Shown one piece after another: positions 9,001-15,000 of a stretch of 64,000 nt of DNA. How positions within the stretch are numbered: the stretch's first letter is position 1; every line of letters starts with the position of its first letter. The stretch lies in the NCBI RefSeq assembly GCF_057098645.1, contig NZ_CM169472.1. One strand, written 5' to 3'. Made by a program: the position numbers.

Positions 9001-12000
9001 ACCACATCGGTAAACGTGGGAGAGCAATCCATTGGTGGACTGGCCATGAATGGCGGTACGCTCATTTTCGATACGGATATTCCTGCTGCGACGCTTGCAG
9101 AGGGATATATCAGCGTCGATACGCTGGTTGTCGGCGCGGGTGACTACACCTGGAAAGGACGTAACTATCAGGTAAACGGGACGGGCGACGTGCTTATCGA
9201 CGTGCCTAAACCGTGGAATGATCCCATGGCGAATAACCCTCTGACGACGCTCAATTTGCTGGAACACGATGATAACCATGTCGGCGTTCAACTGGTGAAG
9301 GCGCAAACGGTTATTGGGTCGGGTGGCTCATTAACGTTACGTGATTTACAGGGCGACGAGGTGGAAGCGGACAAAACGTTACACATTGCGCAAAACGGAA
9401 CGGTGGTCGCCGAGGGTGATTATGGATTCCGCCTCACGACCGCACCAGGTGATGGTTTGTACGTTAACTATGGGCTGAAAGCGCTGAACATCCATGGAGG
9501 GCAAAAGCTGACGTTAGCCGAACATGGCGGAGCCTATGGCGCAACGGCCGATATGTCGGCAAAAATCGGTGGTGAAGGGGATCTGGCAATCAATACGGTG
9601 CGACAGGTTTCGCTTTCCAACGGTCAGTTACAGGGGGAACGCTGGCTATCGAGGGGCTTAATGCACGCTACAATGCGTTAACCAGCGTTAGCCCAAATGC
9701 GGAAGTCAGCCTCGATAATACGCAGGGGTTAGGCAGAGGAAATATTGCCAATGACGGTCTGTTAACGCTAAAAAACGTGACTGGCGAACTGCGTAATAGC
9801 ATAAGCGGGAAGGGTATCGTGAGCGCAACCGCCAGCACAGATGTAGAGCTGGATGGCGATAATAGCCGCTTTGTGGGGCAATTCAACATTGATACAGGCA
9901 GCGCGCTCAGCGTCAACGAGCAGAAAAACCTGGGTGATGCTTCCGTTATCAATAATGGCCTGCTCATCATCTCCACTGAGCGTAGCTGGGCGATGACGCA
10001 CAGTATCAGCGGTAGCGGTGATGTGACAAAACTTGGTACCGGGATCCTGACTCTTAACAACGATTCCGCGGCGTATCAGGGTACGACGGATATCGTGGGT
10101 GGTGAAATTGCTTTCGGTTCCGACTCTGCCATTAATATGGCAAGTCAGCACATTAATATCCATAACAGCGGTGTGATGTCGGGAAACGTCACCACTGCAG
10201 GTGATGTGAACGTTATGTCTGGGGGGACACTGCGTGTCGCTAAAACCACAATCGGCGGCAACCTGGAGAATGGCGGCACGGTTCAAATGAATAGCGAAGG
10301 GGGGAAACCGGGGAATGTACTGACCGTTAACGGTAACTATACCGGAAACAATGGCCTGATGACGTTCAACGCGACGCTGGGCGGCGATAATTCACCCACC
10401 GATAAGATGAACGTGAAAGGCGATACCCAAGGGAACACTCGCGTTCGGGTTGATAACATTGGCGGCGTCGGTGCGCAAACGGTCAACGGTATTGAACTCA
10501 TTGAGGTTGGCGGTAATTCTGCAGGTAATTTCGCGCTGACCACCGGAACTGTCGAAGCTGGGGCTTACGTCTACACGCAGGCTAAAGGGAAGGGGAATGA
10601 CGAGAAAAACTGGTATCTGACCAGTAAATGGGACGGCGTAACGCCAGCGGATACACCCGATCCCATCAATAATCCCCCTGTTGTGGATCCGGAAGGCCCA
10701 TCAGTTTATCGTCCGGAGGCCGGAAGCTATATCAGCAACATTGCCGCAGCCAACTCGCTGTTTAGCCATCGCTTACACGACCGTCTGGGTGAGCCGCAGT
10801 ATACAGATTCACGGCTTTCTCAGGGTTCGGCAAGCAGTATGTGGATGCGTCATGTCGGGGGACACGAACGTTTCAGGACCGGTGACGGCCAGCTAAATAC
10901 TCAGGCTAACCGCTATGTATTGCAGCTAGGCGGCGATTTGGCGCAGTGGAGTAGCAACGCGCAGGATCGCTGGCATCTTGGCGTGATGGCAGGCTACGCC
11001 AATCAGCACAGTAATACTCAGAGTAATCGTGTGGGTTATAAATCGGATGGGCGCATCAGCGGTTACAGCGCTGGGCTGTACGCGACCTGGTATCAGAACG
11101 ATTCGAATAAGACCGGCGCTTATGTTGACTGCTGGGCGCTGTATAACTGGTTTGATAACAGCGTCAGTTCCGATAACCGTTCTGCTGACGACTATGATTC
11201 TCGCGGTGTTACGGCCTCTGTTGAGGGTGGGTATACCTTTGAAGCGGGAACATTTAGAGGCAGCGAAGGGACGCTGAATACCTGGTACGTCCAGCCACAG
11301 GCGCAAATCACCTGGATGGGTGTGAAAGATTCTGACCATAACCGGAAAGACGGAACACGCATTGAAACGGAAGGCGACGGAAACGTGCAAACGCGACTTG
11401 GGGTGAAAACCTACCTGAACAGCCATCACCAGCGTGACGATGGTAAACAGCGTGAGTTCCAGCCTTACATTGAAGCGAACTGGATCAACAATAGCAAAGT
11501 CTACGCCGTGAAGATGAATGGTCAAACCGTAGGCCGTGAAGGTGCGCGTAATCTCGGTGAAGTACGTACCGGGGTTGAGGCGAAAGTAAATAACAACCTT
11601 AGCCTGTGGGGGAATGTCGGTATGAAACTAGGTGATAAAGGCTATAGCGATACTCAGGGCATGCTGGGAGTGAAATATAGCTGGTAAACCGTATAAGCCG
11701 CATGTCGACATGGCATGCGGCTTAATATTGCCAACTTCAAAAGGCTTTTAAAGCCTCCCTTTTATCCGCGATCGCGGATATCGCAGCGTTTATCCCGTAC
11801 AGCGGATAAGATGTGTTTCCAGATTGACTTTATCCTCACTAAAGGATAAAACTGATAATATCCCCTTAAGCGGATAAATTTGCTGTGGACGTATGACATG
11901 ATGAGCTTTCAGAAGATCTATAGCCCAATGCAATTAGCGAATGCAATGAAACTGGTTCGCCAGCAAAATGGCTGGACGCAGAGCGAGCTGGCGAAAAAAA

Positions 12001-15000
12001 TCGGCATTAAGCAGGCGACGATTTCCAATTTCGAAAACAACCCTGACAATACCACGCTCACGACATTTTTTAAGATTTTACAGTCACTTGAACTCTCAAT
12101 GACACTATGCGACACGAAAAATGCCTCGCCAGAATCAACAGAACAGCAAGATCTGGAGTGGTAATGCCTAAACTTGTCACTTGGATGAACAACCAGCGGG
12201 TAGGCGAGTTAACGAATACCCGAAGACGAAACCGTAACGCGTCCGATAATGGCATGGGAAAAGCTTACTGAAGCCAGACTTGAAGAAGTATTAACGGCTT
12301 ATAAAGCAGATATCCCGCTAGGCATGATTAGAGAAGAAAATGACTTTCGCATCTCGGTTGCTGGCGCACAGGAGAAGACAGCGCTGCTCAGAATAGGCAA
12401 TGACTGGTGCATTCCGAAAGGAATAACGCCGACGACGCACATCATTAAATTACCGATTGGGGAAATCAGGCTGCCCAATGCGACGCTCGATCTCAGCCAA
12501 AGCGTTGATAATGAGTATTACTGTCTGCTGCTGGCGAAAGAACTTGGGTTGAATGTTCCGGACGCAGAAATCATTAAAGCGGGAAATGTGCGTGCGTTAG
12601 CGGTCGAACGTTTTGACAGGCGTTGGAATACTACTAGATTCTCCCTTGGTTTCTGTTGGTGCGCATAATGTATATTATGTTAAATCGCATCTGAGTGATA
12701 CGAAGTGATTTTCCGGTAGTCGTTATTCGTTCAGGGTTCCAGAACTTAAGCCTCTCCTCTTTCATAATTGGCCTGTGCATGACGGATATAGGCTGGCTGG
12801 TATGCAGATTTGCCGTTTGCCGCATCTTCCCAGCGTTGAAGACTCAAGCTGGTAAACCGCGTGCAAATGAGCACGCCCTCTTTCCATCAACACTCCAGGC
12901 AGCTTGCGGGAATGAGTCCACTCCGGTATCAGAAATGGCTACGTCTCAATGAAGGCTACGTCTCAATGAAGTCAGGCGAACGATGCTGAATGAACATTAC
13001 GATGTCACCACAGCAGCCTATGCTGTCGGTTACGAAAGCTTATCCCATTTCAGCCGGGAATATTTGCGGATGTTTGGAGAGTCACCTAAGAGAGATATTA
13101 CCAGGTTAAGAAAGTCTGTCGGTCAGCTTTAATAAACCCTGCACTTATCTGTTTAGAGCAATTCGGTGTTAGTTACACCAGGCAAACATTAACTATAGCT
13201 AATGATTTATAGCCATATAAACCATTAGTAGCCCTTGACCTTTCCTGACACTTCCCTTGTTCGCAATAATATTCTGTTTAGTCACGGTTTATAAATAACA
13301 TGCATAATGAAATCGTCATGTTATTTAGCGACATAAAATGTTTTTGCAAATACTCTCTTCAACAAGTGCAGCAATAAACTTGTTGTGACTAGGTGTCCTT
13401 GTGATTTAAAGATATTATCGTTCTTCGTGAAATGTAATAACCCTGGAAACTATATTATCAGGGCAACAACCAATCAAGAATGATTCTTGTTTTATAAGCA
13501 ATAACAGAATGACTTAATTGTTAACTCTCTTTATTCAGCTACTTAAATATAAATTTTGGAGAATTATGAAACTCAAACATGTTGGTATGATTGTCGTTTC
13601 TGTGTTGGCGATGTCGTCTGCTGCGGTAAGCGCAGCCGAGGGTGATGAATCAGTAACGACCACTGTTAATGGCGGTGTTATTCATTTTAAAGGTGAAGTG
13701 GTAAATGCCGCTTGTGCGATTGATTCCGAATCAATGAACCAAACGGTTGAGCTGGGTCAGGTTCGTTCTTCTCGCCTGGCTAAAGCGGGTGACCTCAGCT
13801 CCGCCGTTGGCTTCAATATCAAGCTGAATGATTGTGATACCAATGTTTCCAATAATGCAGCTGTTGCATTTCTGGGTACTACTGTCACCAGTAATGACGA
13901 TACGTTAGCGCTGCAGAGTTCAGCGGCAGGCTCTGCCCAAAATGTCGGTATCCAAATTTTGGACCGTACGGGTGAGGTATTAATACTTGATGGTGCCACT
14001 TTTAGCGCTAAAACTGACTTGATTGATGGCACGAATATACTGCCGTTCCAGGCTCGTTATATTGCACTCGGGCAGTCCGTAGCTGGTACTGCAAACGCAG
14101 ATGCGACCTTCAAAGTTCAATATCTATAATTCAATCTTAAGGTGGCTATACGTCATCTGAAATTGAAACAGGGTGTGTGTGGCATGGCTACACACACCCG
14201 AGCAATTCACCAATGTGAATCTCATTATTAATGAGGAGTGGTTTGTATTTGGAGCGCTATGAAAAATCACATAATATCTAAACTATCAATAAACAATAGT
14301 AGTTAAACTTACTGTTATTAAAAATATTTACTTTTTAGCAAGGTTTTCCTATTAAAAGAGAACCAACATTTATTACAAACGCATTAAGTCTGGAAACCCG
14401 GCGACTCGCCAATGTATTAGCAACATTTACCGATTGTCTGATGTAACGGTTTTCCCGCTTATCCTCTTAACACATGGAGAATGCATCAGATGCAAACTAC
14501 GCGTACCCCCTACTCTATTTCCTTTATGGCGACAGTGTTACTTTTATTGCTCTTTGCTTGCCATAGCACCGTTGCCAACGCAGCTGTCGCACTGGGTGCG
14601 ACGCGGGTAATTTATCCGGCAAACCAGAAACAGGTTTTATTGCCTGTCACGAATAATGATCCTGCCAGTGTCTATCTCATTCAGTCATGGATAGAAAATG
14701 CAGGTGACCAAAAAGACACCCAGTTTGTCATTACCCCACCGCTTTTTTCCATGCAAGGTAAAAAAGAGAATACGCTGCGGATAATCAACGCCACTAATCA
14801 TCAGTTACCAGGCGACCGTGAAAGCCTGTTCTGGGTGAATGTTAAAGCTATTCCTGCTATGGAAAAAGACCAGAAGAATGAGAATACATTACAGCTGGCA
14901 ATTATTAGCCGCATAAAAATGTTTTATCGCCCCACGAACCTGGCAATGGCACCTGAAGAAGCGCCTGCAATGCTTCGGTTTCGTCGCAGCGGTAGCAAAC

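Follow-up and report, generated by a model that had tools for sequence, protein, structure and literature searches.

Introduction

Among the closest described systems to the locus reported here is hipBA of E. coli K-12, in which HipB acts as an autorepressor and HipA is a Ser/Thr kinase that targets GltX. HipB binds to operators with the consensus TATCC-N8-GGATA, represses the operon via four of them and, on its own, binds O1O2 with a Kd of 0.6 nM (PMC3376134). The 16-residue unstructured tail of HipB serves as a Lon degradation signal, and the role of this tail and of W88 has been described in the same work (PMC3376134). Deletion of hipA was found to give no phenotype, and only the gain-of-function hipA7 allele or overexpression does (Hansen et al. 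2012, PMC3376134). HipA is present in at most 2% of ST11, ST648 and ST405 isolates (PMC10790755), and orphan antitoxins have been read as gene decay or, speculatively, as elements of trans-acting regulation (PMC7232551, PMC10790755).

Here, we describe the corresponding locus in a 64-kb stretch of the E. coli O145:H28 chromosome (hereafter the window). With a probability of about 0.9, it represents the chromosomal hipBA toxin-antitoxin locus of O145:H28 caught in mid-decay, best read as the neutral erosion of a module that the cell can do without, in which two small illegitimate-recombination deletions killed the toxin and left behind a neutral hipB. The pseudogenization of hipA meets no contradicting evidence, and the state of the locus is an ordinary and already annotated stage of type II toxin-antitoxin decay: RefSeq (PGAP) marks hipA of O145:H28 as a pseudogene under the label 'hipA, incomplete, missing N-terminus and C-terminus'. 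A literature search revealed no earlier description of the O145:H28 hipA allele.

Results

Operators and hipB Are Intact

The gene order at the locus, comprising an autotransporter, hipB, hipA, yneL and the yde/F9 fimbrial genes, is syntenic with that of K-12. The hipBA operator region (11763..11876, plus strand), delimited by motif count and alignment, contains four exact TATCC-N8-GGATA palindromes flanking the hip promoter, namely O1 (11763-11780), O2 (11791-11808), O3 (11831-11848) and O4 (11859-11876), in agreement with the original prediction that all four operators are preserved. The chance expectation for this motif is approximately 0.04 sites per whole 64-kb window versus the four clustered sites seen, and none of 100 shuffles reached five matches. 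Each of these operators aligns with an operator of K-12, O55:H7 or 14EC033, with a one-to-one correspondence to the K-12 operators. The native hip promoter was missed by a scan for consensus promoters; this reflects the stringency of the scan and not a lesion, since the stretch is identical in relatives with intact hipBA. By analogy with K-12, autorepression by HipB probably still operates in O145:H28.

The hipB gene (11898..12164, plus strand), supported by NCBIfam, tblastn and PGAP, comprises 88 codons followed by TAA and encodes an intact antitoxin/autorepressor. Its preservation, as initially proposed, is borne out by a match to the NCBIfam equivalog NF007271 with 184.3 bits (cut-off 79 bits), covering residues 1-88 on model positions 1-88. 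In tblastn comparisons HipB is identical to that of O55:H7 at 87/88 residues (98.9%, 88/88 aligned), with T11M as the sole residue difference, to which one synonymous change is added at the nucleotide level. The translation ends in ...TEQQDLEW, such that Trp88 and the C-terminal tail are present, and PGAP calls hipB (WP_001401035.1) in the O145 strain 95-3192.

Two Deletions Inactivate hipA

Using full-length HipA and HipB as tblastn queries, no second copy of hipA or hipB was found in the 64-kb window, and HipA matched only two fragments, consistent with the original remark that no full-length hipA is visible in this interval. The first remnant (12164..12214, plus strand) corresponds to codons 1-17 and is identical to hipA nt 1-51, with its ATG at 12164 overlapping the hipB stop codon in a TAATG junction. 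It is followed by the junction of the first deletion (12215..12216, plus strand), where alignments reveal the absence of 257 bp (hipA nt 52-308, codons 18-103). The check for microhomology proposed for this 5' junction revealed a 2-bp AA dinucleotide common to both flanks at 12215-12216. This deletion shifts the frame, because 257 bp is not a multiple of three. The frame that opens at 12164 hence crosses the junction out of frame, as predicted for the fusion of codons 1-17 to a mid-gene segment, and terminates at the TGA at 12266-12268, giving a 34-codon ORF that reads ...MPKLVTWMNNQRVGELTNTRRRNRNASDNGMGKAY up to its stop.

The second remnant (12215..12632, plus strand; tblastn, Pfam and PGAP) covers hipA nt 309-726 (residues 104-242), and tblastn aligns it with HipA residues 104-244 at 97% identity (E 5e-87). 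The predicted break in hipA is borne out, with homology ending at residue 242-244 and not exactly at residue 245, around which it had been placed. At this point lies the junction of the second deletion (12630..12632, plus strand), which by alignment lacks 655 bp relative to O55:H7: hipA nt 727-1323 together with the stop codon, and a further 58 bp of intergenic DNA on the 3' side. At the junction itself, the bases ACT are ambiguous and can be assigned to either flank with one mismatch or to a 3-bp duplication of the next ACT. Among the best 60 BLAST matches in complete E. coli genomes no two-piece match was found, that is, no single-deletion intermediate allele. A putative new promoter at this 3' junction (TTGACA-16-TAGATT, 12613-12640) is unsupported, with one site found versus 1.9 expected. 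Beyond the module, whose 3' boundary it marks, the downstream flank (12633..13132, plus strand; PGAP and alignment) consists of intergenic DNA and a yneL-like AraC-family pseudogene remnant, labelled by PGAP 'helix-turn-helix domain-containing protein, frameshifted, missing N-terminus', after which comes the F9/yde fimbrial operon.

The second remnant keeps the Ser150/Gly-rich loop segment SVAGAQEKT without the C-terminal catalytic part. The catalytic/Mg-binding aspartates of HipA were reportedly placed by Schumacher et al. 2009 at Asp309 and Asp332 in K-12 numbering. Of the Pfam HipA_C domain (PF07804), only model positions 1-77 of 213 are left, such that the anticipated loss of the C-terminal kinase region is upheld: a complete HipA_C kinase domain is missing due to the deletion of nt 727-1323 (residues 243-440). 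Likewise, no in-frame N-terminal domain (Couple_hipA/N-subdomain 1) is present, as codons 18-103 are gone and the frame is shifted, and the NCBIfam HipA model finds no match in the remnants. Judged from their sequence, the hipA remnants can no longer specify a kinase: they have lost the N-terminal domain and about two-thirds of HipA_C, and the first of them is not in frame. A functional type II pair consists of an adjacent, co-transcribed active toxin and a neutralizing antitoxin; at this locus the antitoxin is present and the toxin is a pseudogene, which substantiates the proposed decay state of a type II module, with hipB and its operators intact.

Distribution of the Allele and State of Related Lineages

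The allele was surveyed by BLAST against 5,426 complete E. coli genomes, with a single-piece match denoting the same double-deletion allele. It was found in identical form in 26 of them, 20 labelled O145 or O145:H28 and the other six without a serotype, and among the best 60 matches all those ranking right after these 26 were three-piece matches that correspond to intact hipA. Of the 26 genomes, 24 match the window at 100% identity across hipB and its operators, and the dead hipA remnant is as invariant across the lineage as hipB. One non-synonymous change, Q to L at 12472 within the second remnant, is private to the window.

A further loss was observed in the O145:H28 outbreak strain RM13516, which has the same dead hipA and lacks the 241 bp corresponding to 11727-11967 of the window, i.e., the four operators and hipB codons 1-23; its hipB is flagged as a pseudogene. 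RM12761, which is not among the genomes with a 100% hipB match, has probably also lost the operators together with the 5' part of hipB. Among relatives, hipBA is intact in O55:H7 RM12579, whereas O157:H7 86-24 carries one 619-bp deletion from part of O2 through hipA codon 86, including hipB. The pattern recurs in unrelated strains, with intact hipB next to a differently broken hipA in O55:H7 USDA5905, in the urinary-tract isolate strain 103 and in strain E09, and in approximately 10% of complete E. coli genomes no single place contains as much as 80% of hipA.

Discussion

Proposed Course of Decay and Alternative Explanations

The toxin gene was destroyed by the 257-bp deletion at a 2-bp microhomology and the 655-bp deletion with its ambiguous 3-bp junction. 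With a dead toxin, hipB would no longer be needed for neutralization, and hipB, the promoter and the four operators would remain only as nothing has yet removed them. From K-12 biochemistry, HipB is most likely still produced, in small amounts that it limits itself, and occupies its own operators as a dimer. Loss of the toxin first, with the antitoxin lost later or together with it, is the only order that a toxin-antitoxin module tolerates, and this order appears in three forms: the window allele, the hipB/operator deletion of RM13516 and the deletion of hipB plus the 5' part of hipA in O157:H7.

An artefact of sequencing or assembly, or a coincidental resemblance of the HipA-like segments, is refuted: nothing was found in its favor. 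Complete genomes assembled independently of one another, 26 in all, show these very junctions, which excludes an assembly error and assigns the event to a single lineage. The remnants, in a syntenic position, match hipA with 97-100% identity in both protein and DNA. Hardly more credence can be given to a functional truncated HipA, such as a domain that binds HipB or is dominant-negative, made from the 139-codon ORF (12249-12668) that opens at the ATG at 12249. This ORF is open, its ATG lies in the native hipA frame and the Ser150/Gly-rich loop segment is kept; however, it has no recognizable ribosome-binding site, with no Shine-Dalgarno-like sequence 5' of this ATG, and a ribosome arriving from hipB would stop downstream of it in another frame. 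Moreover, N-subdomain 1 and the greater part of the C domain are absent from the fragment, whereas HipB contacts HipA via its N and C domains (PMC3376134), the final 11-12 codons of the ORF are read-through junk, the window-private Q to L change falls in it and PGAP calls no CDS there.

Maintenance of HipB by selection, either as a stand-alone transcription factor repressing its own promoter and others with TATCC-N8-GGATA-like sites or as an antitoxin with an anti-addiction role towards incoming HipA-family toxins, is somewhat more probable, though we regard it as unlikely. It could draw on the intact and identical state of hipB, its promoter region and the four operators in 24/26 genomes with this allele, on the many orphan antitoxins that E. 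coli carries, for which trans action has been proposed (PMC10790755), and on the reported binding of HipB at the non-hip promoters relA, eutH and fadH (reviewed in PMC3920263), which would leave room for a residual regulatory role. Against this, RM13516 (and probably RM12761) has lost the operators together with the 5' part of hipB at no obvious cost, hipB is wholly lost in O157:H7, and the adjoining dead hipA DNA is invariant like hipB, which gives no indication of constraint. After diverging from the O55/O157 allele, hipB acquired T11M and one synonymous change, which is no evidence of purifying selection. Its conservation carries no selection signal, because the lineage is highly clonal, and judging selection from this conservation is uninformative either way. 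Retained hipB is not evidently maintained, given the further deletion in RM13516. A related idea starts from the independent inactivation of hipA in O157:H7 and O145:H28, the two major enterohaemorrhagic lineages of phylogroup E, with hipA kept in their O55:H7 relative: selection could have acted against HipA-dependent growth arrest in that niche, with HipB then serving as a stand-alone repressor elsewhere, a conjecture that we hold to be improbable.

Physiological Meaning

Under the decay reading, a loss of HipA-dependent growth arrest is expected, which would be near-silent under standard laboratory conditions. O145:H28 strains would form no HipA-dependent persisters and give rise to no hipA7-type high-persistence mutations. 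The original prediction that the lesion should alter persister formation is unsupported: an effect of hipA loss on persistence in O145:H28 is doubtful, because the K-12 hipA deletion was reported without phenotype (Hansen et al. 2012, PMC3376134). The finding is of little consequence in itself, with the hipA pseudogene already known from RefSeq annotation. Its use lies in a tidy and mappable example of a toxin lost before or with its antitoxin, with three stages represented in close relatives (O55:H7 with both genes intact, O145:H28 with a dead toxin, RM13516 or O157:H7 with toxin and antitoxin dead), and in two deletion junctions that can serve as lineage markers for O145:H28.

Comparison with Known Systems

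The window and K-12 share the same locus, synteny, four operators and the TAATG overlap, and HipB, with 88 codons in the window, differs from that of K-12 at four residues in the alignment, among them T11M, A73T and N85D. Unlike in K-12, hipA of the window lacks nt 52-308 and nt 727 to its end, leaving no kinase and no toxin-antitoxin pair. The sister enterohaemorrhagic lineage O157:H7 (ST11) resembles O145:H28 in that a small deletion at this locus has likewise put hipA out of action; however, this was an independent event of opposite polarity, in which O3 and O4 were lost entirely, together with part of O2, hipB and hipA codons 1-86, such that O157:H7 has no antitoxin and keeps a 3' piece of hipA that lacks a promoter. 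Orphan antitoxins, such as higA in CFT073/NRG857c and those abundant in ST131 and other B2 lineages, are similar in that the antitoxin outlives its partner toxin. In contrast to them, the toxin remnant is still visible in the window with both deletion junctions mappable, and a later step of decay, the loss of hipB and the operators, can be seen within O145:H28 itself.

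Two deletions disrupt hipA in E. coli O145:H28

The original prediction of an orphaned hipB antitoxin gene with four operators next to a hipA toxin gene broken at two points was followed up by aligning the window with K-12 W3110, O145 95-3192, O55:H7 RM12579, 14EC033 and O157:H7 86-24, with all coordinates computed, and both lesions could be located against full-length hipA. In deletion 1, 257 bp are missing (hipA nt 52-308, corresponding to codons 18-103), and the AA dinucleotide at 12215-12216, common to both flanks, identifies it as a 2-bp microhomology junction, a feature whose presence at the 5' breakpoint had been proposed as a check. 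As 257 cannot be divided by three, reading from the hipA ATG changes frame and ends at a TGA after 34 codons. Compared with O55:H7, deletion 2 takes away 655 bp, made up of the 3' part of hipA (nt 727-1323) with the stop codon and a further 58 bp of the intergenic DNA that follows. Its breakpoint cannot be placed more finely than 12630-12632, since the bases ACT at these positions either fit each flank with one mismatch or duplicate the following ACT. A promoter-like TTGACA-16 nt-TAGATT pattern (12613-12640), oriented toward the F9 fimbrial operon, lies across this junction with its -35 element derived from hipA coding DNA and its -10 element from downstream intergenic DNA; one such pattern was found versus 1.9 expected, a count no higher than chance.

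Two pieces of hipA remain, nt 1-51 and nt 309-726. The second of them, corresponding to residues 104-242, shows 97% identity with HipA in tblastn (E 5e-87), spans only positions 1-77 of the 213 in the Pfam HipA_C model and gives no hit to any NCBIfam HipA model. The protein is lost from residue 243 on, and with it what we take from the K-12 HipA structure to be the catalytic Asp309 and the Mg-binding Asp332. The hipA gene of the window, which has neither a whole kinase domain nor an N-terminal domain in frame, is shown at the sequence level to be unable to encode a kinase, and hence the two genes do not form a working type II toxin-antitoxin module. A full-length hipA elsewhere would have overturned this reading, and tblastn found no other HipA-like sequence in the 64-kb window. 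The segment with Ser150 and the Gly-rich loop, whose role has been described (PMC10627512), is still contained in the second fragment.

Retention of hipB and its operators

The intact state described for hipB and its operators is borne out by the sequence of 11400-13400 and the ORF list. Pattern search yielded four exact TATCC-N8-GGATA palindromes, O1 (11763-11780), O2 (11791-11808), O3 (11831-11848) and O4 (11859-11876), with about 0.04 such sites expected by chance per 64-kb window. The hipB gene (11898-12164, 88 codons plus stop) is covered over its full length by the NCBIfam HipB equivalog model, at 184 bits for a cut-off of 79, and its stop codon overlaps the hipA ATG (TAATG) in the same manner as in K-12. 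Aside from lineage SNPs, hipB, the promoter region and the operators agree with the corresponding sequences of relatives whose operon is intact. The gene qualifies as a hipB, and the operator region as a hip regulatory region. A fifth exact palindrome with the HipB operator consensus (16675-16692) stands alone within the gene for a fimbrial usher and probably arose by chance.

Genomic surroundings of the locus

The locus is collinear with that of E. coli 95-3192. It is flanked on one side by the lsr operon and an autotransporter pseudogene; on the other side come a yneL-like AraC remnant, the F9/yde fimbrial operon and then ydeP, safA-ydeO, gadBC, dosCP and ddp. The large autotransporter gene (~6510-11687, ECSE_1600 family), directly upstream of hipB, is annotated in the O145 reference as a pseudogene, frameshifted and interrupted by an internal stop, and is broken into several ORFs in the window. 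Within the yneL-like AraC-family remnant, a 17-bp tandem duplication GGCTACGTCTCAATGAA (two copies, 12937-12970), present in the window and O145 95-3192 and not in O55:H7, O157:H7 or K-12, accounts for the 'frameshifted' flag assigned by PGAP. Over ~130 bp between the hipA downstream region and this remnant (12768-12900), K-12 is unrelated to the O145/O55/O157 group, a sign that the K-12 lineage underwent a separate rearrangement.

Distribution of the allele and decay in relatives

Using 12100-12760, with both junctions included, as megablast query against 5,426 complete E. coli genomes, a single-piece full-length match was obtained in 26 genomes (20 labelled O145 or O145:H28, six unserotyped), and every match ranked after these was in three pieces, hence with intact hipA. 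On these alignments the double deletion is real and fixed in one lineage; an assembly artefact is ruled out by the same allele in 26 complete genomes. Position 12472 is T in the window and A in all 26 allele genomes and every other aligned reference, a private change that would turn Q into L in the reading frame of the defunct hipA. Of the 5,426 genomes, 4,849 have at least 80% of hipA in one place, counting in the O157:H7 type (81%), and ~10% fall below this level. In a 950-genome survey, the HipA_C-Couple_hipA toxin occurred in at most 2% of ST11, ST648 and ST405 isolates, and orphan antitoxins were abundant in E. coli (PMC10790755).

Unlike the window, O55:H7 RM12579 has both hipB and hipA intact. 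O157:H7 86-24 differs by a single 619-bp deletion extending from inside O2 (window 11802 onward) to hipA codon 86. This deletion eliminates hipB with its promoter and the start of hipA, so that only a 3' hipA fragment without a promoter is left, and it is independent of the hipA deletions in the window. Among the 26 allele genomes, 24 have a 100% identical 421-bp operator-plus-hipB segment, with the exception of RM13516 and RM12761. In RM13516 (O145:H28, Belgium), an additional 241-bp deletion (window 11727-11967) extends over the four operators, the promoter and the first 23 codons of hipB, which PGAP flags as a pseudogene there; RM12761 is probably in the same state, given its absence among the 100% matches.

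Predicted behaviour of the locus and retention of hipB

HipB would still be expressed and, by cooperative binding to the four operators, would repress its own promoter: it is described as the hip operon repressor, and purified HipB alone binds O1O2 with a Kd of 0.6 nM (PMC3376134). With no HipA to protect it, HipB would be degraded by Lon via its C-terminal tail (PMC3376134), and the autoregulatory loop would then presumably idle at a low level. By the logic of such modules an antitoxin can disappear only after its toxin or together with it, and both routes are seen, the former from O145:H28 to RM13516 and the latter in O157:H7.

The main rival to simple decay is that HipB has a residual regulatory role in trans, for which its reported binding to the relA, eutH and fadH promoters, reviewed in PMC3920263, can be adduced. 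However, RM13516, which belongs to the same lineage and is a successful outbreak strain, has dispensed with hipB, making such a role improbable, and we regard hipB as a relic and not as a regulator that is being maintained. Conservation of hipB is uninformative here, since the dead hipA DNA is equally invariant in this clonal lineage. Also improbable is a convergent, selected loss of HipA in the two enterohaemorrhagic lineages with co-option of HipB as a stand-alone regulator, a proposal weakened by the same hipB loss and by how often unrelated lineages have lost hipA. As to phenotype, altered persister formation had been expected, but hipA deletion is reported to have no phenotype in K-12 (PMC3376134); the safest prediction is instead that loss of hipA is near-silent. 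The one firm consequence is that this lineage cannot yield hipA7-type high-persistence mutants, since the hipA7 positions G22 and D291 both lie in deleted DNA.

Comparison with known cases

The O145:H28 allele is already flagged in 26 public RefSeq records, where PGAP labels the remnant 'hipA ... incomplete; missing N-terminus and C-terminus' beside an intact hipB, and the literature search found no paper specifically on this hipA allele, which is a gap in commentary and not in knowledge. That an antitoxin is left alone next to the pseudogene of its toxin is familiar from other cases, and an intact hipB also accompanies a frameshifted hipA in O55:H7 USDA5905, a 231-residue HipA stub in the urinary-tract isolate 103 and a hipA broken by a transposase at about codon 35 in strain E09, all of them unrelated.
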